Source: Parcubacteria group bacterium
Lineage (GTDB): Bacteria > Patescibacteriota > Minisyncoccia > UBA6257 > Colwellbacteraceae
DNA length: 58,319 bases
Reading direction: 5' to 3'
Assembly (NCBI GenBank): GCA_041649615.1
Contig: JBAZMT010000005.1
Span: 1 to 58,319, forward strand
Positions 3,799 to 53,178 of the stretch are shown here, one piece after another; within the stretch, counting starts at the first letter, position 1, and each line of letters opens with the position of its first letter. A program made the translations under genes and the position numbers. The notes under the pieces are model-generated. The model ran no database searches. It had not been told where the DNA came from and was given only the letters and a program-made list of their open reading frames with translations.

Positions 3799-4194
3799 AT
3801 GAACGAAGCATACAACTGGTATCAAACTTTAATAAAACCGAATTGGGCACCGCCGAGCTGGCTTTTTGGACCGGTCTGGACGGTTCTTTACGTTATTATC
3901 GTGATTTCTTTCGGCACGGTATTTCACAAAGCATTTACTAAACAAATCTCATGGCTTGTCGCACTTCCTTTTGTGCTTAATCTCATTTTCAACTTCGCAT
4001 TCACACCGATTCAATTCGGTCTTAAAAATAACTACTTTGCCGCGCTCGATATTCTTCTCGTTTTTGGCACGCTCATCTGGGCGCTTATCACCGTCTGGCC
4101 TCATGTGCGCTGGGTGGTTTTTGCCAACATTCCATATCTCCTCTGGGTTTTTTTCGCGACAGTCTTGCAACTGACGATAACGTATTTGAATTGA
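3799..4194 (+). CDS. tspO: TspO/MBR family tryptophan-rich sensory protein
   Basis: 131 aa. WYQTLIKPNWAPPSWLFGPVWTVLY and the multi-TM layout are typical of TspO. Confidence 0.8.
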   Translation: MNEAYNWYQTLIKPNWAPPSWLFGPVWTVLYVIIVISFGTVFHKAFTKQISWLVALPFVLNLIFNFAFTPIQFGLKNNYFAALDILLVFGTLIWALITVWPHVRWVVFANIPYLLWVFFATVLQLTITYLN

Positions 4195-4314
4195 AAAATA
4201 ATATGGCAACAAAAAGAGCAAATTCAAATTTACATAGAGCGGTTAATAAAAGATTAATAAATACAGCAACAGCCCTGAAATAAAAATTCATATTTATTTT
4301 ATGTTCTCGCTAGT

Positions 4315-4677
4315 TTAGTCGTGGCAGTAACTGCCAGTGAGCGTGTCCGTGTTGTGTAAATCGTAGTCAGTGCAGTTGTATTGCGGAGCGGTTCGCGTGT
4401 AAATGGCGCAATAGCAGGCGTCAAAAGCGTTGTTACAAGCTTGTACTTCGGCGCCGTAAGTATCACCAAACGGCTCTTTGCAGGTCTTCCAGGTGGTAGA
4501 ACAATCAGCACGTTCTTCCGGTGCGGAAGCCGTCCAGGCTTCGTAATCACAAGAAGAAGACAAGGGTTGTACAGTGCGGGAAGAAAGTCGTCCAGCGTAA
4601 ATCCAATAGCCCATTACAGCCACTAACACTATTCCTATCACTATCCATATCCATTTCTTAACCAATACTTTAGGCAT
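4315..4677 (-). CDS. Hypothetical membrane-anchored, Cys-rich (8 Cys) extracytoplasmic protein
   Basis: 120 aa with an N-terminal TM helix (WIWIVIGIVLVAVMGYWIY) followed by a Cys-rich domain. I recognise no family. Confidence 0.5.
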   Translation of the reverse strand: MPKVLVKKWIWIVIGIVLVAVMGYWIYAGRLSSRTVQPLSSSCDYEAWTASAPEERADCSTTWKTCKEPFGDTYGAEVQACNNAFDACYCAIYTRTAPQYNCTDYDLHNTDTLTGSYCHD

Positions 4678-4704
4678 AGTTTTTATATTATCACACTGGG
4701 TTTT

Positions 4705-5958
4705 CTACCTAATATTTTTTGGTCCTAGAGCGACAATAAGAAGATTATTTGGAGACAGATACTTTTTCGTCACTTCCATTAATTTCTCTTTGGCAATGCT
4801 TGAAATAGTGGAAATGTAGTCCTCCGTCGTATAAAGAGAATCCCTTAGGATGAATCCTCTCCCCAGATCTCTTATGCTAAGTGGATCAATGTTCCGAACT
4901 TTATAAAAATTAATAAGTCTCATCTTTAAATCTTCAAATTTTTCCTCCGATAAATATTTTTCTAGGTTTTTCATGATTTCTTTAACCGCATCAACCATTT
5001 CTTCTGGATTTTTGGTTGACGTACTGATACTGAATAATCCTGCATCGGAAAAAATACTAAACGGACAAGAAACACTATATGTGAGTTTTCTTTTGTCTCT
5101 TATTTCTTGGCTAAGAAGAGAACTCATGCCGTACCCTAAATAAGCGGCTATTATCTCAAGAGCGGCGTTGTCTTCATCTTTATCAATTCCGTTTATTATG
5201 TAACTGAACCAAAGTTGAGTTTCTTCTGTGTTCCTTTTTTCAAAAGAGTAAGATTCTTTTTCTCTTGGTAAAAATGGAGCATTATTTGCCAACGAAACAG
5301 CGTTTTGACTTTGCCAATTCCCGAAATGTTTTTTAGCTAATTTTTCGGAATCAGCGGGAGATAATCCTCCGGTAATGATGAGAATTGAATTTTGAGGGAT
5401 AAAAACTTTTTTGTGATAGTCCTCTAATGTTTTTATATCAGCTTTTAAGACGGTTTCTTCTGAACCAAGGGGATCGTTTGCGAGTGGATGCCCTTCAAAG
5501 TTTTTATTAAATGCTAAGTGAGCGGCCCACAACATAGGATTATCTCTACTACGCTGAATTTCCCTTAGGACGATTTGTTTTTCTTTCTCTAGGTCTTCTC
5601 TTTTAAGTAATGGGTTTAGAACTAAATGAGACAAGACATCAAATGAATCTTCCGCGTATTCAGCGGCTCCCTCAATATAAAACAGAACGTTGTCTCTCCC
5701 CGTAGCACCATTTATTTTGGCTCCTTTGGCTTCAACTGCGTTTGATATCTCAAACTTGTTCTTATATTTGTCATTTCCCAAAAATAACAAGTGCTCGAAA
5801 AGATGGCTGAATCCTAATTCGTTTTCATTTTCGTAACGAGACCCCGCTTTTAACCATACGGATACATGCACTCCCTCAAATTGAGAGGTATAGCTTGTGA
5901 TAACCTTGAGCCCGTTATTTAAAGTTGTGAGATTGTATTGTTTCACTGGTTTCTTCAC
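4705..5958 (-). CDS. M16 (pitrilysin/insulinase) family zinc peptidase
   Basis: 417 aa with the inverted zinc motif HxxEH in SHLFEHLLFLG. Confidence 0.85.
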   Translation of the reverse strand: MKKPVKQYNLTTLNNGLKVITSYTSQFEGVHVSVWLKAGSRYENENELGFSHLFEHLLFLGNDKYKNKFEISNAVEAKGAKINGATGRDNVLFYIEGAAEYAEDSFDVLSHLVLNPLLKREDLEKEKQIVLREIQRSRDNPMLWAAHLAFNKNFEGHPLANDPLGSEETVLKADIKTLEDYHKKVFIPQNSILIITGGLSPADSEKLAKKHFGNWQSQNAVSLANNAPFLPREKESYSFEKRNTEETQLWFSYIINGIDKDEDNAALEIIAAYLGYGMSSLLSQEIRDKRKLTYSVSCPFSIFSDAGLFSISTSTKNPEEMVDAVKEIMKNLEKYLSEEKFEDLKMRLINFYKVRNIDPLSIRDLGRGFILRDSLYTTEDYISTISSIAKEKLMEVTKKYLSPNNLLIVALGPKNIR

Positions 5959-6848
5959 TTCTCCATGTCCCTTAATGCTTTTACCCTGTCCTCAATCGGG
6001 GGGTGGGTCATAAAGAGTTTCATAATGCCCATATTCTTGCCGTCTTTTATCGGGCTTGAGAGCCAAAGATGAGCAGTGGCGGAAGAGATGTGACGCATGG
6101 GGGTCGGATCGTCTGCAATCTTTATAAGCGCGTTTGCGAGGCCTTCCGGGTAACGAGTTAAAAGCGCTCCTGAAGCATCCGCCAAAAATTCCCTTTTTCT
6201 TGAGACGGCCAGTTGAATGAGCATCGCGGCAAAGGGGGCAATGATCGCACCGATAACCGAGAGCAAAGCGAAAACATTGTCTTCCGAGTTTTTGTTCCGG
6301 CTCTTAAAGATATTCGCCCTAAGCAAAGTGTCTGAAATCACGGAAATGAATCCGACAAGTACGACTATCACCGTTCCAAGCAACATGTCCCTGTTACCTA
6401 TATGGGAAAGTTCGTGGGCGATGACTCCTTCAAGTTCACTGCGATCAAGACGATCTAATAATCCTTCCGTTACGGCAAGAGCGGCGTGATTCGGGTCGCG
6501 ACCGGTTGCAAAAGCGTTTGGGGCCATTTCCGGCACGATATAGACTTTCGGCATCGGGAGTCCCGCGGTAATTGCGAGATTTTCAACGATTCGGATAAGT
6601 TCGGGATTGGTTTTTATCGTAACTTCTTCCGCTCGCGTGGAAGCAATAACGAACTTATCCGAGAACCAATAACTTACGATACTCATAAGCGAGGCTATGC
6701 CGGCAAAGACATAAAGAATTGTCGGATTGTTATACGCTCTGGAGATTATCCAGCCGAAAGAAATTACGAGTACTAGAAAAACGGTAATGATAATCCAAGT
6801 CTTGCGGATATTTCTATCCTTGTATTCGTATATCGTCGCCATTGGCAA
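5955..6848 (-). CDS. htpX: M48 family membrane protease HtpX
   Basis: 297 aa with HEXXH in VIAHELSHIGNRD, multiple TM helices and the THPPIEDR C-terminal motif. Confidence 0.9.
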   Translation of the reverse strand: MPMATIYEYKDRNIRKTWIIITVFLVLVISFGWIISRAYNNPTILYVFAGIASLMSIVSYWFSDKFVIASTRAEEVTIKTNPELIRIVENLAITAGLPMPKVYIVPEMAPNAFATGRDPNHAALAVTEGLLDRLDRSELEGVIAHELSHIGNRDMLLGTVIVVLVGFISVISDTLLRANIFKSRNKNSEDNVFALLSVIGAIIAPFAAMLIQLAVSRKREFLADASGALLTRYPEGLANALIKIADDPTPMRHISSATAHLWLSSPIKDGKNMGIMKLFMTHPPIEDRVKALRDMEK

Positions 6849-7424
6849 CTAAAATTCCACCTTAACGTTTTGGCGTTCCTCTTCGCTTCCCGCTTCAAAG
6901 AAAGGCTCTTCTTTAAACTTGAAAATATTCGCAACAATCACCGAAGGGAAAGTATTAACTTTAATGTTAAGCTCCCGAACGTTTCCGTTGTAGAATCGGC
7001 GCGATGCCTGGATTTTATTTTCCGTATCGGTAAGTTCGCGTTGTAAATCAAGAAAATTAGCGTTCGCTTTGAGATCGGGATAATTTTCGGCAACGGCGAA
7101 AAGAGTTTTAAGCGTGGCCGAAAGATGATTCTCCGCTTCGGCGCGATTTATGGGATTTCCGCCGGCGCTTTGAATTTCCGCTCGAGCTTTCGTGACGTTT
7201 TCCAAGACGTCTTTTTCGTGAGACATATATCCCTTGACCGTTGAAACAAGATTCGGGATAAGGTCAAAACGGCGTTTTAGTTGAACGTCTATGTCCGAGA
7301 ATGCTTCTTTGACTCTCTTTTTTAAAACTATAAGGCGGTTGTAAGTTGCCGCGAACCAAATTAAAAGAACGGCAATGACCGCCAGAATTACGAAGATTAT
7401 GGTCATGCATTGATTATACATCAA
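6849..7424 (-). CDS. lemA: LemA family protein
   Basis: 191 aa with an N-terminal TM helix, [33 protein letters not shown] and [12 protein letters not shown]. It is adjacent to htpX, as is common. Confidence 0.85.
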
Positions 7425-29982: not shown

Positions 29983-30114
29983 TCGCTTATTTTTTATTTA
30001 AAACCTTTATTTAATTATACAATAAGCGCAATTTGGGTTGTGGATAAACATTTGCAACAGGAGTGCGCGAGTCAGCCGATAAAAAGACAGGGGCTATGAT
30101 AAAATGAAGTCGTT

Positions 30115-31968
30115 ATGAAACTTTCCGTCCGGTATCGTCTGGACGCCGTTTTGTCTTTCTTTTTAATCGTTACCCTTACCCTTCATTTCAGTCGGATGCT
30201 TTCGGGTATAGGCGTTTACGTGCTTCCCATTATGGCCGTTATCGGTTTGGTACCCGTACTCTTGGGAGTAATTCGTTCGTTCCGCGAGAAAGAGTGGGCT
30301 TCAATGGATTCACTCGCTTCGGTGGCTCTTATATTTTCACTTTTAAGCCGTGAATGGATGTCCGCCGTTTTTATTGAGTTGATGCTTGCCGCCGCGCGAA
30401 TACTTGATGACGTTACGCGCGACAGGACGGAAAAGAGCGTTCGCGGTCTTTTGAAATTGCGGCCGGAAATCGCGCGGGTCGAAAAAGACGGAATGTTGGT
30501 TGATGTCCATATCCGGAGCGTTAAAATCGGCGATATTGTTGCCGTGGGAATAGGAGAACGCATGCCGGTAGACGGCATAGTGCTTTCGGGAAATGCGGCC
30601 GTCGATGAGTCGTCACTGACCGGCGAGTCGATTCCCGTGGATAAATCGGAGAAAAGTCGCGTAATGAGCGGAACGCTTATGCAATCGGGCAGTTTGCGCG
30701 TCAAAACGACTCACGTGGGTAAAGACACGACAATAGAGAGAGTGATAGCGCTCGTTGAATCGGCGCAGAATGAAAAACCTTCGGCGCAGACTTTGGGCGA
30801 ACGATTTGGGAAAATATATCTTATTTCCGTGTTTTTGGGAGTAATCGTTCTTTTTGCGATAACTCGTAATTTACCTCTTGTTTTAGCCGTAGTACTCGTG
30901 GTCTGCGCGGACGATCTCGCCATCGCCATACCCATTACCTATTTGCGAGCCATTCACGCGGCGGCCAATCTAGGAATTATCGTAAAAGGCAGCCGGCATT
31001 TGGAAATGTTCGGCAAGCTCCGGACGATCGTTTTTGACAAGACGGGAACGCTTACGACCGGCGTTCTTTCCGTAGCCTCGATTATCAGGACGAAAGGACA
31101 CTCTGAAGACGACGTGCTTGAATGGAGCCTCTTCGCCGATTCTTTTTCCAATCACCCAATATCGCGCGCTATCGTGAATTACGCCCTGGAGCGCGGATTT
31201 AAGACCACCGCTCCCGATTCCGCCGAAGAGAAGGGAGGTAAAGGGGTCGTAGCGAAGACAGGGAAAAACAAAATCGTTACCGGGAAAAGAATTTTTTTGG
31301 AGGAACAGGGCATCACTTTTCCTCCGGAAATCATTGAAGCCGCGGACAGGGAAGCTTCTCTTGGACGCAGCGTTTCTTACGTTTCCAAAAATGGGCGCGT
31401 TATCGGATGTATTACAGCGGCCGACACGATAAGAGAAAACGCCAAAAAATCGATAAAGGAGCTCCGAGAGCTTGGCATCCAAAAAATAGTCATGCTTACG
31501 GGCGACAATAAACGCGCCGCGGAAGCAATCGCTGAACAATTAGGCGTAGACGAGTGGCACGCCGAGCTCATGCCCGAAGAAAAAGTAGAAATTATAAGAC
31601 AACTTCAAAAAAATGATTTAGTCGCCATGGTCGGCGACGGAGTGAACGACGCAGCGGCGCTTTCAATTGCCGGCGTCGGTGTTGCCATGGGAGGTCTCGG
31701 CGCCGAGGGGACGATCGATTCGGCGCAAATTGTTCTAATGCGGGACAATCTCTTGACTCTTCCCGCAGCCATGCGCATCGCTCGGGCGGCGCGCCGAGTT
31801 TCAATTGAGGACTTCGGAATATGGGGAGCCACGAACGCTTGCGGACTCGCGCTTGTTTTTCTCGGATTTATCGGACCCGCGGGCGCGGCGGCTTATAATT
31901 TTCTTTCAGATTTTTTGCCCCTTTTTAATTCTATGAGAATAAAAATAAAACGACGTCAATTGTCGTAA
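30115..31968 (+). CDS. P1B-like P-type ATPase lacking an N-terminal metal-binding domain, with a non-canonical TM6 motif
   Basis: 617 aa with TGES, DKTGTLT, MLTGDN and GDGVNDA. Where CPC/SPC is expected, the sequence reads VVCADDLAIAIP. Confidence 0.85.
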   Translation: MKLSVRYRLDAVLSFFLIVTLTLHFSRMLSGIGVYVLPIMAVIGLVPVLLGVIRSFREKEWASMDSLASVALIFSLLSREWMSAVFIELMLAAARILDDVTRDRTEKSVRGLLKLRPEIARVEKDGMLVDVHIRSVKIGDIVAVGIGERMPVDGIVLSGNAAVDESSLTGESIPVDKSEKSRVMSGTLMQSGSLRVKTTHVGKDTTIERVIALVESAQNEKPSAQTLGERFGKIYLISVFLGVIVLFAITRNLPLVLAVVLVVCADDLAIAIPITYLRAIHAAANLGIIVKGSRHLEMFGKLRTIVFDKTGTLTTGVLSVASIIRTKGHSEDDVLEWSLFADSFSNHPISRAIVNYALERGFKTTAPDSAEEKGGKGVVAKTGKNKIVTGKRIFLEEQGITFPPEIIEAADREASLGRSVSYVSKNGRVIGCITAADTIRENAKKSIKELRELGIQKIVMLTGDNKRAAEAIAEQLGVDEWHAELMPEEKVEIIRQLQKNDLVAMVGDGVNDAAALSIAGVGVAMGGLGAEGTIDSAQIVLMRDNLLTLPAAMRIARAARRVSIEDFGIWGATNACGLALVFLGFIGPAGAAAYNFLSDFLPLFNSMRIKIKRRQLS

Positions 31969-46849: not shown

Positions 46850-49800
46850 TTAATCACCGTTTATTACTTCTTTAAGATTCCAAAACATACTGTTGCCTTT
46901 TTCAATCAAAAGGTTAATAAGATCGATAACTTTCTGCTTCATCGCTGTATCGCCAGCCTTATAAATTATGTCGAGGGATTGTTTAATTTCATTGTCGAGA
47001 TTAAATAATGGCGCACGTCGATTCTGGTTCAAATTACCAGTTGAATCCAATAGGAAATGCTGGATTATTTCTAAAGTCTTTTCTCCATTTTTTTGAGCAA
47101 AGACGGGGAGCCTTCTCATAAGACCGTAATCCCAGTCGATATCTCCATTTGATTTCTCAAGCGTCTCTGCTACTCGTCCAATCACCTCTTCATCACTCAA
47201 GACTTCTTTATTTGGATTTATCCAAAATCCAAAACCCGCAAGGGGCTCCGGCTCCCTAACGTTCTCCAATGCCCAATCCCAAAACTTCAATAGTTTATCC
47301 TTACTAACTTTATTTTCATTTAGCCATTCATCTCCAGCTTGATCTCGAATTAAGCAGCTGCGACCAATGAAGGATATGAACTCTTGATATCTCTTAGAAT
47401 TAGACGTGCTCCAAAATTGCTGAAATAGCGAGTCCTCGATTTCAAGACCTAAATGAGCGAAAGCAAGCGCGATGTGGACCGCTAGGGATTCATCAAGCCC
47501 CTTGGAGTACTTTCGCCCTGTGTAGATCTTCGGATCAAGAGTAATCGCGTGGCTATAATAAGCACTAAGGTCGATAAAAAGTTTATCGTAGAGAGTATTG
47601 GAAAGATATCCTTCCCAGCTTGCTAGATAAAGGTCTTTTTTAGCAGGATCATCTTTAGGGAATATTTCCGGCAAAAGCCCAGTAACAAATTCCTTATCTC
47701 GAAAATAAAAGGTCGCCAAGTATCGACCAATGACAAACCGAACCGCAAGCGAATCATCAGCAAGAGCCTGCTTAAATAAAGCCTTTGTATCGTCGGCCAA
47801 AGTCTTGCCATCATTCTCAGTGAACACGACAAACGCCTCGTATGCCCGGCCACGCACAGAATTAATCGCCACATGATAAGGCTCACCGTACTCTGGTTTC
47901 TCATGCTCCTTGGAAGGACTATCTTTTATAGACAGAAGGTATGAAATTAAATCCTTTATTTTTATTCGGTTTTGTTTGTGATTATCATCTCGTGTTTCTT
48001 TATTCTCGAGAATGTATAACAGAGCGTCGGTTATTACCTTATGAACTTCAATCCAGTCTGCAAGCCATGATTTATCGTCTTTACGCCTAAAAGGAGTTGC
48101 CTCGCCGCTTTTTTTGATCGCGTCGCAGAGACCTAATAATTGTTCTATCTGAATTAGCGTCAATATTTGTTTATTACGAAGCATCTCTTCAATGCCGCGC
48201 AGAAGTGAATATACATAAGCAGGATGAATATTATCTCGATCGAAGAAAGAAGTGATTTTGCTTAGGTATTCATCGGTGCGCTTTTTAACGTCCTCTTTAA
48301 TAGAATCACCCAAACCTTCCACACCTCGAGGGCTAAGAAAATCGTCATCTTTAAACTGCTCCTTTAATTTCTCTGGAGACCAGTCTGATTTTAGATTTGC
48401 AATAATTTGGTCAACAGCGTAATCCGCTACATTCACCGGGGACCTGTGAGCAACAAAACCAGATTGAATTTTTCCTACAGAAGGCTGAGGAGTATATTCT
48501 GCGTCACACTTGCTTCCAAATATTTCTTCACATTTTTCCGCCTCTTCTACTGTAAGGTGAGTACAAATGCTAGATATAATCTCCCAGCCTGTACGTTTAT
48601 GCCAGGCCTGATCTGGATGCTCCTCCGCTTTCTTCGAAAAATAACTGAATACCTGAGCGACATAAGTACGCTGATCAGCGTCGTCAAGGTAATAAAATCC
48701 AATTTTTAGAGTTTTTTTGTATTCAGTCCCACCTTCAATATCGTAGTAATTTTCTACCTCAAATAATTTGAAAAAGGCGGCCTTAAGTTCTGTCTTAAAT
48801 ACAGTCGGGCATTGAGAAAGAGCAAACATTCTTAAACGCCATGTTGCCCGACAAGTTGGAAGAGTATCAATATATTCAAACAGCCTCTTGGCATTAGCAG
48901 GAGTATCACATTTCTTGCCGATCGTTCCTTCGATCAATTTCTTTATAATCGCAGCAAGATTTTTTATATCCTCTCGGTATGAATAACTGTGTTTATCTTC
49001 AATCTCTAAGGTGAAAATATCGACATCATACAAAGAAAATAGATCTGAATATTGAAATGCTCCAGAATCGTCTGGCGTAGCTAACTTAACAATCTCACTC
49101 ATGACGGCCGTAGTTATTTGCAAGGCTTTTTCCTTATGCAAATCATCAATACCTTCTAATGCCTCAAAAATACCGGAAGCATCAAGATCACTAGCATAGA
49201 ACGGATCGTCCATACCAAAACCAGCAGCTTTTTCAGCCATCTCCGCTTTGCTTTTAGCTAACAGCATCGCCTGTGCTAATTCCAAAATAGCGTCATTCTC
49301 TCTTTTCTCTACTAACTTTTCTACGATTCGAGTAAATTCATAACCGCTTTTACGGAAACTGCGCATAAGATAAACCCACTTCTCATCACGAATCTTTGCT
49401 GTGAGCGTCTTTATTTGTTCTGCCGGAAGCGAACCGATAATCCACATAAAGCGGTCTACCACTTCAGGATTGAAATTTGCTTCAGAGATCGAAGCAGATG
49501 TAATAATCTCAGCAACCTTGATTGGGTTCTTATTGACCATTCGAAGCAGATATTCCAATTCTGAAAGTCGATAAGAATAACTAGTTGTATTTTCTGCTTT
49601 CTTTTTTATCTCATCGAGAAAGCCGTTCTTCCAAAGCCACTCAATCCGAGTTTCATTGGCCTGCGAAAAGAAGTAACGCTTAGCGTCATAGCTCAAAGAG
49701 AACAGTAACCACAAGTATGACGCATCCTGATTATTCTCTTTAAGGAAAGCGTCGATCTTCTCGTGAATCTTGAGAGGATCAAGCGATGATTCCTTCAGTG

Positions 49801-50386
49801 TATTTTCAAATACTTGAACAAGATTATTAAAATCTTTTTCTGTGGGAAAATCCTTCTCATCTACAGTTATCCCAAGCTGTTTAAATATTCTTATAGCACC
49901 TTCCTTACTTTTCTTTTCTGCAAAGTGATGCGAGATTTTTGTAAAAGCTAAATGGGTTTTATATAGGGTGTTGGCAATGATTTTTGCACGTTTCTGTTCG
50001 TGAAGGACTTCAAGGACGCCTCCAATTTTCTCTCTTTTTGTCTGAAGGTTAAGAAGCTTATTGAGAGAATTATTTTTAAACCCAAACTTACTTAACAATG
50101 AATAAAGCTTAACCTTAATTTTGAAATAAACATTCTGATCCTTTTGGCCCCCTAGTCTATAAAGCAGTTCCCGGTAAGAATGAGCAGACTGAGCCATCCA
50201 ATCAGGGTTAGAAGTGGCACTATGTACAACAGCTAGCGCACCTTTAATCAGGTCAGATGGCAAAACTCCATCCGGACAAATTTTTTCTTTCTCGTTAAGA
50301 CGATCCAAATAATTACAAATCCACTCTTGATGTGACTCAAGTTTAAGTGGTCGATCTATCTTGATGTCTAAGTCCTTATCTTCCAT
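46850..50386 (-). CDS. 1178-aa orphan protein, apparently all alpha-helical repeat, with no catalytic or NTP-binding motif recognised
   Basis: It is one uninterrupted ORF in an AT-rich island. I found no Walker A, HEXXH, PD-(D/E)XK, HNH or TM segment. It is divergently transcribed from the LexA-methyltransferase gene. Confidence 0.75.
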   Translation of the reverse strand: MEDKDLDIKIDRPLKLESHQEWICNYLDRLNEKEKICPDGVLPSDLIKGALAVVHSATSNPDWMAQSAHSYRELLYRLGGQKDQNVYFKIKVKLYSLLSKFGFKNNSLNKLLNLQTKREKIGGVLEVLHEQKRAKIIANTLYKTHLAFTKISHHFAEKKSKEGAIRIFKQLGITVDEKDFPTEKDFNNLVQVFENTLKESSLDPLKIHEKIDAFLKENNQDASYLWLLFSLSYDAKRYFFSQANETRIEWLWKNGFLDEIKKKAENTTSYSYRLSELEYLLRMVNKNPIKVAEIITSASISEANFNPEVVDRFMWIIGSLPAEQIKTLTAKIRDEKWVYLMRSFRKSGYEFTRIVEKLVEKRENDAILELAQAMLLAKSKAEMAEKAAGFGMDDPFYASDLDASGIFEALEGIDDLHKEKALQITTAVMSEIVKLATPDDSGAFQYSDLFSLYDVDIFTLEIEDKHSYSYREDIKNLAAIIKKLIEGTIGKKCDTPANAKRLFEYIDTLPTCRATWRLRMFALSQCPTVFKTELKAAFFKLFEVENYYDIEGGTEYKKTLKIGFYYLDDADQRTYVAQVFSYFSKKAEEHPDQAWHKRTGWEIISSICTHLTVEEAEKCEEIFGSKCDAEYTPQPSVGKIQSGFVAHRSPVNVADYAVDQIIANLKSDWSPEKLKEQFKDDDFLSPRGVEGLGDSIKEDVKKRTDEYLSKITSFFDRDNIHPAYVYSLLRGIEEMLRNKQILTLIQIEQLLGLCDAIKKSGEATPFRRKDDKSWLADWIEVHKVITDALLYILENKETRDDNHKQNRIKIKDLISYLLSIKDSPSKEHEKPEYGEPYHVAINSVRGRAYEAFVVFTENDGKTLADDTKALFKQALADDSLAVRFVIGRYLATFYFRDKEFVTGLLPEIFPKDDPAKKDLYLASWEGYLSNTLYDKLFIDLSAYYSHAITLDPKIYTGRKYSKGLDESLAVHIALAFAHLGLEIEDSLFQQFWSTSNSKRYQEFISFIGRSCLIRDQAGDEWLNENKVSKDKLLKFWDWALENVREPEPLAGFGFWINPNKEVLSDEEVIGRVAETLEKSNGDIDWDYGLMRRLPVFAQKNGEKTLEIIQHFLLDSTGNLNQNRRAPLFNLDNEIKQSLDIIYKAGDTAMKQKVIDLINLLIEKGNSMFWNLKEVINGD

Positions 50387-50407
50387 AATTTCAGTTTCTA
50401 ATTATCC

Positions 50408-50448
50408 ACACTTACATTTTCGTAAGATTTTCGGTATACTATAAGTGT
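50408..50448. promoter_or_regulatory. Divergent control region: putative promoter embedded in nested inverted repeats (candidate operator)
   Basis: On the plus strand, TTACAT (50412-50417), a 17-nt spacer, then TATACT (50435-50440). The inner inverted repeat is CTTAC(50411-15)-N6-GTAAG(50422-26). The outer one is ACACTTA(50408-14)...TAAGTGT(50442-48). Confidence 0.4.
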
Positions 50449-50479
50449 ATCACCTAAATTTAAAAACATCGATCAATCT

Positions 50480-52009
50480 ATGCCTATACCAATTACTAAA
50501 AGACAAAAAGAGGCTCTGGACTTTATAAAGAAGTTTATCCGTAAGAAAAAATACCCTCCAACATTGGAGGAAATATGTTTGGGGCTTAAGCTTTCGGCGG
50601 TCTCAACTGTCCATCAGCATATAAAGGCCTTGGCCGAAAAGGGTTATTTAAAAAAGGTTGGAAATAATGCTCGAGCTATTCATATCTACGAATCTGAGCC
50701 TATGATCCAAATTCCCTTCTTGGGAACAATCGCGGCAGGAGAGCCAATCGAAGCAATCAGACAAAACGAGTTTATATCAGTACCAAAGGCAAAACTACCG
50801 AAAAGCGGGCAAGTTTATGCTTTGCGTGTGAGCGGCAATAGTATGATTGATGAAAATATTAAAGACGGAGATGTTGTTTTGGTAAAACAGCAAGAGGTGG
50901 CAGAAAACGGCCAGCGAGTAGTTGCTTTGATAGATAACTATGAAGCAACCCTAAAGAAATTTTATAAAGAGCGTGCGCAAATTAGATTACAACCCGCAAA
51001 TTCAGCCTACGAGCCGATAATCATTAGAAAAGATCGGGATATAAAAATTCAGGGAATTGTTGTTGACGTTATTCAAAATGAAAAAGAACTACTAGCGGAG
51101 AAGATAGAAACAGCGACTGTAAAAAGAACAAAAACTTTGCCACTCAATAAAATTATTTTAGGAGACGCGGTGGCAGAACTAAAAAAGCTCCCAAGTGAAA
51201 GTTGTGATGTTATCATAATCGACCCCCCTTACAATATCGGCAAAGATTTTGGGAATAATATTGATAAAAGAGAATTGAGCGAATACGTTGCTTGGTGTAA
51301 AGAATGGATAAACGAGTGTATTCGTGTGATGAAGCCGACAGCAACTATGTTTATTTACGGTTTTAGCGAAATCCTTGCTCATTTGTCGGTAGGGATACCA
51401 ATAAACAAACGTTGGCTTATTTGGCACTACACAAACAAAAATATTGCCTCTCTTAATTTTTGGCAAAGAAGCCACGAGGCAATTATTTGTGCGTGGAAAG
51501 ATAAACCGACTTTTAATCGCGATGAAGTTAGAGAGCCATACACCGAAGGGTTTTTGAATGGAGCCGCGGGGAAAGTGAGGAGAGGAACACTCGGCAGATT
51601 TAGTAAAAATGGAATAGAAACTGTTTACAAAGCACATGAAGGCGGAGCATTACCTCGCGATGTCATTAAAATTGCCGCTTTAGCCGGTGGAGCGGGAATG
51701 GTTGAAAGGTGGTTTTTGTGCAAAACTTGCAATGATGTTTTTGAACCGCAAGAACTACAAAAACACAGCGGACACAAAATTATGAAGCACCCAACACAAA
51801 AACCGCTTGAACTTTCGCGAAAACTTATAAAATCGGCAATGCCTAAAAAAGACGGGGTTGTCTTAGTGCCGTTCGTTGGTACTGGCTCGGAGTGTGCGGC
51901 CTCAAAAGAATTAGGACAATCTTACATCGGATTTGAAATAAACCCGGACTATGTGCGAATAGCGGAAAAAATGGTTGATAGTGTAAGAATTGCTCCTAAA
52001 TTATTTTAG
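50480..52009 (+). CDS. Fusion protein: full-length LexA (wHTH + S24 autopeptidase) joined to a beta-class N6A/N4C DNA methyltransferase
   Basis: Residues 1-200 carry the LexA wHTH, the FLGTIAAGEPIEA cleavage site (A-G), the Ser box RVSGNSM, the Lys in EATLKKF and the ending IQGIVVDVI. Residues ~215-509 carry motif IV IIIDPPYNIG, HPTQKPLEL and motif I VLVPFVGTGSE. Confidence 0.85.
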   Translation: MPIPITKRQKEALDFIKKFIRKKKYPPTLEEICLGLKLSAVSTVHQHIKALAEKGYLKKVGNNARAIHIYESEPMIQIPFLGTIAAGEPIEAIRQNEFISVPKAKLPKSGQVYALRVSGNSMIDENIKDGDVVLVKQQEVAENGQRVVALIDNYEATLKKFYKERAQIRLQPANSAYEPIIIRKDRDIKIQGIVVDVIQNEKELLAEKIETATVKRTKTLPLNKIILGDAVAELKKLPSESCDVIIIDPPYNIGKDFGNNIDKRELSEYVAWCKEWINECIRVMKPTATMFIYGFSEILAHLSVGIPINKRWLIWHYTNKNIASLNFWQRSHEAIICAWKDKPTFNRDEVREPYTEGFLNGAAGKVRRGTLGRFSKNGIETVYKAHEGGALPRDVIKIAALAGGAGMVERWFLCKTCNDVFEPQELQKHSGHKIMKHPTQKPLELSRKLIKSAMPKKDGVVLVPFVGTGSECAASKELGQSYIGFEINPDYVRIAEKMVDSVRIAPKLF

Positions 52010-52693
52010 AGATTGATCTATTTCTGCCCTCTCTCTTTCAAAAGCAAAAGGAGTAAAAACAACAAATCCATTGGGAAGTCTCTTTAATTCTTTATTCGTC
52101 ATAAATCTTGAATAGGGCAACTTATATGCACCGTCTTTTTTCTTTGGATTAACAAAATAATCATCGCTCGGTACTTCGTATTTTATATCAATAAATTTTC
52201 CGTCTATAATTTTCTTTGATTTTTTCTCCGCTCTAACCTCTCTGCTAAAAGTCGCTTTCTTAACTTGATAATTCAATATCACTCCATGGTATTTGACTTG
52301 AAAGTCGGCCCCTTGATGATCTAACTCCGCTGACATTGCAACCGTTCCGTCGCCGTAGACTGATTCCGCAACATAACCGGCATGAATTTGCGTAATGATG
52401 CTTGCCCATGTGCGATAAATTCTCGCCGGAAGTCCGCGATAAAAACAATCCTTGCACATTGTTATCTTTTGTCGGAATGATTCAATTTCTGATTTTTTAG
52501 AACCGAGATACTCTTCATAAAAATCCTCAAAGTCTAAAAATTTCTTTTGGTCCCAATAGACTTTGTACAGCATTTCTATCACCTGTATTTCTTTGGGCAA
52601 GTCCATTTCAACGAGTTTAATTGGCCTATATTTTTCGCGATAGACCTTAAGATCAACCGACTCTAAAAATTTTGTAAATTTATTTAGCAACAT
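52001..52693 (-). CDS. Putative type II restriction endonuclease (cognate of the fused methyltransferase)
   Basis: 230 aa, directly downstream of a C-protein gene and convergent with the methyltransferase (9-nt overlap). A possible PD-(D/E)XK-like core is ELDHQGADFQVKY...NYQVKK. The call rests mainly on context. Confidence 0.5.
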   Translation of the reverse strand: MLLNKFTKFLESVDLKVYREKYRPIKLVEMDLPKEIQVIEMLYKVYWDQKKFLDFEDFYEEYLGSKKSEIESFRQKITMCKDCFYRGLPARIYRTWASIITQIHAGYVAESVYGDGTVAMSAELDHQGADFQVKYHGVILNYQVKKATFSREVRAEKKSKKIIDGKFIDIKYEVPSDDYFVNPKKKDGAYKLPYSRFMTNKELKRLPNGFVVFTPFAFERERAEIDQSLK

Positions 52694-52696
52694 AAG

Positions 52697-52915
52697 TTAT
52701 ACGAAATACGAAACAGGCTTTTTGTAAATTTCCGCAATATTTTTTAACTCGGCAACATCAAGACGCCTTTCGCCGGACTCTATTTTTGAGATATAGGATT
52801 GCGGTTTGCCTAATTTATCGGCTACCGCCTGTTGGGATAAGCCAGCTTCAATACGCGCCGTTTTTAAACGCTCTATAATGTCTTTGTAATCTTTTGAGTA
52901 AGCTGACTTGCTCAT
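52697..52915 (-). CDS. XRE-family HTH controller (C) protein of the R-M system
   Basis: 72 aa. ARIEAGLSQQAVADKLGKPQSYISKIESGERRLDVAELKNIAEIY has the size and position (4 nt upstream of the R gene) typical of C proteins. Confidence 0.75.
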   Translation of the reverse strand: MSKSAYSKDYKDIIERLKTARIEAGLSQQAVADKLGKPQSYISKIESGERRLDVAELKNIAEIYKKPVSYFV

Positions 52916-52949
52916 AGTTATTTCTATGATATATCCTATTGTGGTATAA

Positions 52950-52962
52950 TCCCAAAATGGGA
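52950..52962. promoter_or_regulatory. Candidate C-box palindrome upstream of the C gene
   Basis: TCCCA-AAA-TGGGA is a perfect inverted repeat, flanked by TATAAT-like hexamers (52945-50 and 52963-68), about 35-50 nt upstream of the C start. Confidence 0.35.
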
Positions 52963-53178
52963 TATAATATGTTTATAGATCTAGTTGCCGAAAATTTTTT
53001 GCAAAGCCTAAGCGATCTGTCCGCTGAAGCATTAGGGCAGGCGGGAGTGAGGTGGTTAAATAAGGTTCCGCTTTTTGGATTTGTGTATTAGATTTGGCAA
53101 AGTGATTTCAAAAGCATGCCCCGTAAGGAGCTTGCTTTCCTGTGGGGTTTGCGAAGGTTTTAATTCGGGAGCAAACGC

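Follow-up and report, generated by a model that had tools for sequence, protein, structure and literature searches.

We identified a gene on a contig of a Parcubacteria group bacterium (JBAZMT010000005.1, positions 1 to 58,319, the whole of this 58-kb stretch being referred to below as the window) in which a complete LexA repressor is joined in a single reading frame to a DNA methyltransferase (MTase). The gene (50480..52009, + strand) lies beside a TaqI-like restriction endonuclease gene and behind a promoter that contains a candidate LexA operator. Our preferred reading, to which we assign a probability of roughly 55 %, is that the protein is the methylase of a restriction-modification (R-M) system with a built-in, self-cleaving LexA autorepressor, so that modification would be derepressed upon DNA damage.

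A complete LexA fused to a beta-class methyltransferase

The fusion gene consists of one uninterrupted frame of 509 amino acids broken by neither a stop codon nor a frameshift, as the initial annotation of this sequence had described. The features by which a protein is recognised as a LexA are present in its N-terminal half, namely a winged helix-turn-helix (wHTH), an S24 domain, an Ala-Gly scissile bond and a Ser-Lys dyad. The wHTH DNA-binding domain (DBD; residues 4-66, 50489..50677, + strand) matches Pfam PF01726 (LexA_DNA_bind, E 3e-16) and includes the recognition helix SAVSTVHQHIKALA (residues 39-52, 50594-50635, + strand), and the S24 autoprotease and dimerisation domain (residues 79-195, 50714..51064, + strand) matches PF00717 (Peptidase_S24, E 4e-32). 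Together with a score of 190.8 bits for residues 4-200 on the NCBIfam lexA equivalog model TIGR00498 (cutoff 110.95), these matches bear out the earlier description of an entire LexA at the N-terminus. Residue alignment to the LexA crystal structures 3k2z, 7b5g and 1jhh places the predicted cleavage bond at A86-G87 (50735-50740), the nucleophile at S121 (50840-50842) and the general base at K159 (50954-50956), all on the + strand; these correspond to A84-G85, S119 and K156 of E. coli LexA, and the AAG cleavage site, Ser nucleophile and Lys base had thus been assigned correctly. The structure alignment also pairs Q46, a variable position of the recognition helix, with E45 of E. coli LexA, a residue that touches bases in the LexA-DNA structure.

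The recurrence of this domain order in related genomes, which the initial annotation had proposed as a check, is extensive. Independent metagenomes yielded more than 120 clusters of proteins (at 90 % identity) with this three-domain architecture, the proteins being 504-513 amino acids long and 74-83 % identical to that of the window, and all named members of these clusters are Patescibacteria. Among species-representative genomes 72 loci were recovered (loci are numbered below with the prefix L), about 60 of them with the fusion, the majority from named Patescibacteria lineages that include Jorgensen-, Falkow-, Taylor-, Nomura-, Campbell-, Giovannoni-, Lipton-, Dojka- and Kuenenbacteria, among others. 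The homologues carry the NCBI name 'transcriptional repressor LexA'.

The conservation of the protein differs strongly between its parts. Mean identity across relatives is 0.84 for the MTase, 0.58 for the DBD, which is the fastest-evolving folded domain, and 0.54 for the linker. The S24 domain of the window protein is 95 % identical to that of L006; no sampled relative with the same MTase has a DBD more than 55 % identical to that of the window protein. A86, G87, S121 and K159 are unchanged in all 50 genome-derived fusions and in 43 diverse fusions to different MTases. Since the cleavage site and the Ser/Lys dyad are invariant where DBD and linker diverge, the cleavage apparatus is, on the evidence of these alignments, under purifying selection.

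The C-terminal half (51155..52006, + strand) matches a beta-class N6/N4 DNA methyltransferase (PF01555, N6_N4_Mtase, residues 243-497, E 5e-39), with 135 bits against a gathering cutoff of 26.7, and the fusion protein also matches the PADLOC model MTase_II (E 7e-49). The motifs DPPY (motif IV, residues 248-251, 51221-51232), HPTQKP (residues 437-442) and FVGTGSE (motif I, residues 465-471, 51872-51892) follow one another in that sequence on the + strand, DPPY lying N-terminal to FVGTGSE, in agreement with the beta-class order noted earlier. The closest MTases with solved structures include M.MboIIA, M.RsrI and CcrM. Directly before HPTQKP lies an insertion, FLCKTCNDVFEPQELQKHSGH (residues 412-432, 51713..51775, + strand), whose CxxC...HxxH pattern had been pointed out before; its four Cys and His residues (C414, C417, H429 and H432) do not vary across 59 homologues. 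In the AlphaFold2 (AF2) model this is the sole well-modelled segment, a hairpin followed by a helix with a predicted local distance difference test score (pLDDT) of 81-91, and as modelled the insertion is a C2H2-like beta-beta-alpha zinc finger. It sits in the region where beta-class MTases carry their target-recognition domain.

The two halves are connected by a variable and probably flexible linker (residues 199-225, 51074..51154, + strand) that shows the lowest conservation in the protein and a pLDDT below 50 at residues 202-226. It spans roughly residues 199-225 and possibly reaches residue 242. Measured from the end of the final LexA strand to the start of the Pfam match to the MTase, the spacer comes closer to 25-45 amino acids than to the approximately 15 that had been estimated.

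The fusion gene as part of a restriction-modification module

The gene downstream of the fusion encodes a TaqI-family type II restriction endonuclease (R) of 230 amino acids (52001..52693, - strand; Pfam RE_TaqI, E 3e-38; PADLOC REase_II, E 4e-34). It is convergent with the methylase gene (M), and the 3′ ends of the two genes overlap by 9 nt; no terminator-like site was found between M and R in the window. A controller (C) protein gene of the HTH_3 family (72 amino acids, 52697..52915, - strand; Pfam HTH_3, E 1e-16, and PADLOC control-protein models) lies upstream of R in the same direction. This arrangement is widespread: a convergent TaqI-like R adjoins M in 35 of the 42 loci that could be evaluated, the two genes overlap by 9 nt in 29/32 intact loci, and a C gene accompanies 16 of the 33 R-positive loci. 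From this evidence we conclude that the fusion gene is very probably the M component of a type II R-M module. The flanking genes are unlike from locus to locus; the mobile unit therefore consists of the promoter, LexA-M, R and, in some loci, C.

The tetranucleotide TCGA occurs 105 times in the window where 267.5 occurrences are expected, an observed/expected ratio (O/E) of 0.39 that is the lowest of the 16 palindromes of 4 bp, the others ranging from 0.76 to 0.95. In 202 kb flanking 34 loci with a TaqI-like R, TCGA is again depleted more than any other of these palindromes (O/E 0.49), compared with 0.93 for unrelated loci. With a TaqI-like partner and a depletion of TCGA, this sequence is the most likely target of the system. 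The MTase probably generates N6-methyladenine (m6A) at TCGA, the expected product being TCG-m6A, a modification that the DPPY motif favours.

The C/R promoter region (52926..52963, - strand) contains a promoter-like sequence TTGGGA-18-TATCAT at 52955-52926, a C-box-like palindrome ATCCCATTTTGGGAT (52949-52963, - strand) that is conserved upstream of C in about 20 loci, and a second C-box-like element AGGATAT (52931-52937, - strand). An element upstream of the C promoter, TTTTCGGCA, was considered as a LexA half-site and rejected; by eye a similar sequence is present in loci with the other type of recognition helix, and it falls in a T-run that looks like a terminator.

Seven loci lack a TaqI-like R, and in five of them a different, unannotated convergent ORF occupies the position of R. 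These open reading frames (L026:6523-7149, L027:6528-7142 and L038:6519-7136; L021:6550-7203 and L046:6558-7241) form two families, one of about 205 amino acids with a D...EVK motif and another of about 220 amino acids, and the TCGA O/E in the flanks of the loci concerned is 0.63. They are probably alternative endonucleases serving the same methylase.

A candidate operator within the methylase promoter

An independent consensus scan and the homologous layout of related loci place the promoter of the fusion gene at 50411..50440 (+ strand), with the -35 hexamer CTTACA (50411-50416) separated by an 18-nt spacer from the -10 hexamer TATACT (50435-50440). The spacer is filled by a direct repeat, ATTTTCG-N4-ATTTTCGG (50416..50434, + strand), with a period of 11 bp and half-sites at 50417-50422 and 50428-50433, which we regard as the candidate LexA operator. 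Related loci show a homologous layout (TTGATT-17-TATAAT/TATACT), though the sequence farther upstream is unrelated. The exact form TTTCG-N6-TTTCG occurs a single time in the window, at this promoter, and matches with one mismatch number 11 against 22 expected. Across the non-redundant set of 64 LexA-MTase promoters, an exact repeat of at least 6 nt with the 11-bp period was present at -75..-20 in 37, compared with 0.8 % of background windows. In L057 and L059, where the same M and R occur with no LexA, the repeat is absent.

The repeat unit varies by locus, and its two copies change together. TTCTA half-sites are paired with a recognition helix of the type S-T-x-H-F-H/Y in 43 loci and TTCG(G/T) half-sites with a helix H-(E/Q)-H in seven loci, the window among them, and GCTCGGG, TTTAGG and TTCAC half-sites pair with still other helices. 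Proteins with the H(E/Q)H helix have HFH-type proteins as their nearest neighbours in both the S24 and the MTase domains. As they are scattered among HFH-type neighbours, the helix appears to have switched several times independently. A related exchange is seen in L084, where LexA is fused to a D12 MTase: its DBD is of the same type as that of the window (66 % identical), and its operator and -10 (TTTTCGTAAGATTTTCGGTATACT) are identical to those of the window, which argues that promoter and DBD constitute a cassette moving between MTase classes. Taken together, these patterns in the sequences make it quite probable that the methylase is autorepressed through the direct repeat, its predicted operator.

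Other sequence elements were noted around this promoter. An imperfect palindrome, GGTATAC...GTATCACC (50433-50454), lies over the -10 and the probable transcription start, and related loci have a partial counterpart, TATAC-N5-GTATA, at this position. The window has a TCGA site (50469-50472) between the -10 hexamer and the start codon of the fusion gene, and the operator half-sites of some relatives include TCGA (TTTCGAT; promoters of L026, L066, L006, L011 and L047). Because TCGA lies near the promoter, or within the half-sites of some relatives, repression could be sensitive to methylation by the system itself, which has been reported for M.EcoRII.

A perfect DnaA-box consensus, TTATCCACA (50402..50410, + strand), directly abuts the -35 hexamer. 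The perfect 9-mer was found in either orientation at -100..-30 in 45/64 promoters, and its density of 10 per kb in promoters compares with 0.03 per kb elsewhere (538 kb), an enrichment of approximately 330-fold. The element is invariant where the LexA operator varies. It is not present in the LexA-less L057 and L059, and follows the LexA DBD and not the MTase. These distributions suggest a second, host-factor input at the promoter, with DnaA as the presumptive binder. Two copies of TTATCCACA are present in the window against 0.24 expected; the second (30039-30047, - strand) precedes a P-type ATPase gene (30115-31968) by 68 nt.

LexA modules on methyltransferases of other classes

Among representatives at 50 % identity, dozens of clusters carry the LexA module at the N-terminus of proteins of 430-840 amino acids. 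All 43 such clusters that were scanned contain both LexA_DNA_bind and Peptidase_S24, combined with an N6_N4_Mtase in 31, a D12 MTase in five, gamma-class MTases (Eco57I, N6_Mtase, MmeI) in approximately five and a C5 DNA_methylase in one. Judged by these domain combinations, the LexA module is a general and exchangeable attachment to DNA methyltransferases.

A number of loci depart from the arrangement of the window. L040:1913-7426 contains two complete LexA-MTase, R and C systems in tandem, one with a 630-aa fusion and an MvaI/BcnI-family endonuclease and the other TaqI-like. The recognition helices of the pair read HHH and HEH and the operators are also different, a divergence consistent with selection for regulators that do not cross-react. 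L033:5004-8393 encodes an 1129-aa triple fusion of LexA, a beta-class MTase and a gamma-class, M.TaqI-like MTase with TaqI_C, and is followed by an additional gamma-class MTase gene. In L056 two MTases (3889-5064 and 6150-7247; 391 and 365 amino acids) carry a LexA-like winged helix without S24, and their promoters retain a DnaA-box-like element, a direct repeat of the TTTAGG type and the -10 layout.

Genes of about 74 amino acids encoding a LexA DBD alone were identified in L080-L085 (e.g. L084:5001-5222), with 67-75 % identity to the unusual DBD of the window. One lies directly 3′ of a LexA-D12 MTase fusion and others are followed by small unannotated ORFs; by their context they may be remnants or partial genes, or else free-standing regulators. 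Truncated LexA variants of 200 amino acids (L071:4998-5600, L072 and protein P0191) lose their similarity to the module past residue 171 or so, where a tail rich in Cys (CPxCxxKEDPDGRCxCVNxDAW) follows, and sit in loci with mere remnants of R. They look like decaying copies of the module.

A model for damage-responsive modification and its alternatives

We propose that dimers held together by the S24 domain would place two winged helices on the direct repeat in the -35/-10 spacer and block the promoter, so that the methylase would control its own level through negative feedback, as is known for M.SsoII, M.Ecl18kI and M.EcoRII. DNA damage, including double-strand breaks that the endonuclease of the system itself introduces where TCGA is unmodified, would give rise to filaments of RecA on single-stranded DNA, in response to which the S24 domain would cut A86-G87, free the DBD and open the promoter for the synthesis of more methylase. 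In the absence of a terminator between the overlapping convergent genes, derepressed M transcription would also enter R in antisense and lower its expression; in other systems antisense transcription across convergent R-M genes lowers endonuclease expression (PMC12707154). The net effect would be a damage-triggered move from restriction to modification, a brake on autoimmunity and a type II counterpart of restriction alleviation. We consider the separate parts of this model to differ in strength. Damage-induced cleavage of the fusion is favoured by the conserved residues with modest confidence, and the role in restriction alleviation is put forward tentatively, its chances being somewhat below even.

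Several points weigh against this model. It is from sequence that we infer binding to the operator, cleavage in response to RecA and induction, and likewise the consequences for R and the role in the cell. The pairing of half-site and helix (43:0 / 0:7, no exceptions) gives a Fisher p = 1e-8 that is not phylogeny-corrected. The wHTH-only MTases of L056 keep the promoter layout, and S24 would thus be dispensable for autoregulation in some variants. The full-length AF2 model, based on 59 close homologues, reached a mean pLDDT of 55 and a predicted template modelling score of 0.34, too poor for judging domain packing or the compatibility of the S24 dimer with the fusion. No recA was found in the window, and neither recA nor dnaA in the compared loci; from the general picture of candidate phyla radiation (CPR) genomes recA is expected in these bacteria. 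The fragments of cleaved E. coli LexA are protease substrates, and the S24-MTase fragment might likewise be degraded after cleavage, reversing the predicted outcome. Finally, more methylase during phage attack would aid the escape of the phage, a cost of the design.

Of the alternatives, plain autoregulation of the SsoII type survives best, although we consider it unlikely. LexA would then act as a dimerising, operator-binding domain only, with no cleavage or damage sensing in vivo. The enrichment of the repeat and its co-variation with the helix fit such autoregulation too, the wHTH-only fusions of L056 share the same promoter layout, and the known MTase repressors work without a protease (PMC12707154, PMC2760811). 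What speaks for a cleavable repressor instead is the invariance of A86-G87, S121 and K159 in the 43 diverse and 50 genome-derived fusions despite a divergent DBD and linker, since a domain used for dimerisation alone would need neither the catalytic dyad nor the scissile bond.

The conserved cleavage machinery would also serve in a suicide switch, in which cleavage, set off by DNA damage or by RecA activated upon phage infection, destabilises the MTase fragment, methylation falls and the endonuclease attacks the chromosome and kills the damaged or infected cell, following the logic of abortive infection or post-segregational killing. The predicted N-terminal fragment would end in ...IAA and so resemble the degron that cleavage of E. 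coli LexA exposes at a C-terminus, and R-M systems are known to act as addiction modules similar to toxin-antitoxin systems (PMC3874152). We rate this outcome as quite improbable, as cleavage removes the repressor too and the synthesis of new methylase should rise, the large C-terminal fragment shows no sequence sign of instability, and read-through from the derepressed M promoter should reduce R rather than increase it.

There is a still smaller chance that the fusion is the principal SOS repressor of its host, controlling a damage regulon, with the methylase as a secondary passenger or epigenetic arm. The protein passes the lexA equivalog model and its homologues bear the NCBI name of the repressor, the named standalone LexAs among the best 150 representatives at 50 % identity belong to phyla other than Patescibacteria, and the 58-kb window holds no second lexA. 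Against such a role, the gene belongs to a mobile R-M module with unrelated flanks at every locus, and its operator specificity varies by locus, with differently specific copies side by side, which fits poorly with a regulon that is conserved. Within the 58-kb window the exact operator is present a single time and near-matches are not enriched, and other loci have this M and R with no LexA. The window, in which no SOS genes were found, is a 58-kb part of the genome, and a dual role keeps a small chance. An artefact of assembly or annotation that joined adjacent lexA and MTase genes has a negligible chance, given the same architecture and length in more than 120 independent clusters and some 60 species genomes, and no example among the loci found of the two as separate genes split at the linker.

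Relation to known systems

The closest functional parallels are M.SsoII, M.Ecl18kI, M.EcoRII and M.MspI, which likewise combine an N-terminal DBD, a flexible linker and an MTase with an operator at their own promoter (PMC12707154, PMC2760811, PMC3978073). The M.SsoII-type enzymes carry a simple helix-turn-helix (HTH) of about 70 amino acids on C5 MTases and no protease, whereas the fusion has a complete LexA with S24 on an N6_N4 MTase; the operator is a direct repeat here and a palindrome there, and DNA damage could in principle end repression here. By its predicted features the fusion works like the members of this group but is not one of them, as both the regulator and the MTase class differ. 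The PvuII, Esp1396I and AhdI systems resemble the module in having a small HTH gene upstream of R and conserved palindromic C-boxes (PMC2175313). Unlike in those C-protein systems, C is optional, being present in about half of the R-positive loci, and M is under separate and more elaborate control.

With canonical LexA (E. coli, Thermotoga) the fusion shares alignment over the full length of the repressor, the cleavage bond, the Ser-Lys dyad and a candidate operator of its own. The form of the half-sites, (G/T)TTC-N7-(G/T)TTC, has the geometry of a known class of LexA box, the direct-repeat SOS boxes GTTC-N7-GTTC of Alphaproteobacteria (PMC8565304). It differs from canonical LexA in being fused to an enzyme, in belonging to a mobile R-M module and in an operator specificity that varies between copies, and no sign of a wider regulon was seen within the 58-kb window.

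In function, the predicted behaviour resembles type I restriction alleviation (EcoKI), a shift away from restriction, after damage or when unmodified sites arise, that limits autoimmunity (PMC4231737, PMC11109961, PMC12707154). Damage-induced alleviation in type I systems proceeds through degradation of HsdR by ClpXP (PMC4231737, PMC11109961), as is the case for EcoKI, whereas the fusion would act through self-cleavage of a repressor borne by the methylase. For type II systems the reviews consulted mention no mechanism of this kind.

The module shares with the TaqI system an endonuclease of the RE_TaqI family and the avoidance of TCGA. M.TaqI itself is a gamma-class enzyme with TaqI_C, whereas the methylase of the window is a beta-class enzyme with a zinc finger and N6_N4_Mtase as its sole MTase Pfam match; an M.TaqI-like module was seen in the loci only as the extra C-terminal fusion in L033. 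S24 repressors that respond to RecA also sense host damage on behalf of mobile elements, as in lambda CI and SetR of an integrative and conjugative element. CI and SetR are standalone proteins that control lysogeny or transfer through a DBD that is not of the LexA wHTH type, whereas the fusion is joined to the very enzyme that it would regulate.

Each of the three components is already known by itself: the MTase with its own repressor domain, LexA, and the S24 repressor that serves a mobile element. A cleavage-competent LexA on R-M methylases of all classes, together with a co-evolving direct-repeat operator, is apparently undescribed. We found no description of LexA-MTase fusions in the searchable literature, and neither LexA nor S24 is named in a 2025 review of R-M systems; a study of the Patescibacteria SOS network (Sanchez-Osuna et al. 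2017, Environ Microbiol 19:3465) may deal with these proteins or with their motif.

A type II R-M system can kill the cell that carries it. The safeguards reviewed for them comprise C proteins, MTase repressor domains and antisense RNAs, which control timing and dosage, none being described as sensing DNA damage (PMC12707154, PMC3874152). If the preferred model is correct, a universal damage signal is wired into the modification arm, providing the type II equivalent of restriction alleviation. The design is common in small-genome candidate-phyla bacteria, occurs on every major MTase class and shows cassette-like exchange, and many 'LexA' annotations in CPR genomes are these fusions. Recurrence across MTase classes together with operator diversification would make them a naturally occurring collection of repressor-operator pairs that are orthogonal to one another and can be released by damage. 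A broader proposal, which we think doubtful, is that Patescibacteria R-M systems have captured the LexA sensor as a swappable cassette (promoter, DnaA-box-like element, direct-repeat operator, wHTH and S24 domain) that can be placed on any MTase class with orthogonal specificities. LexA would then be mainly or exclusively a guardian of individual systems against autoimmunity and not a global SOS regulator, and the supply of methylase would be tied to damage through RecA and to replication through DnaA.

Genomic setting of the module

Plasmid, phage and IMG/VR collections returned half-length matches alone and no full-length fusion. The window itself is chromosomal, with ftsZ and ftsA just past a tRNA-Asn gene. 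By its FtsZ the host belongs to the Parcubacteria group, close to Colwellbacteria, the best named hit standing at 84 % and those after it at 72-73 %. A small upstream gene of 118 amino acids in L001-type loci was considered as part of the module and rejected, as it is not conserved with it.

The region from about 44 to 54 kb of the window has a lower G+C content than the remainder. This stretch includes an ORF of 1178 amino acids (46850-50386, - strand), divergent from the LexA-MTase gene, for which no match was obtained in Pfam, NCBIfam or PADLOC. It was rejected as part of the module, as it does not recur beside it in other loci. The two divergent genes share a 93-bp intergenic region, and the promoter of the 1178-aa ORF must therefore overlap the operator region of the fusion gene.

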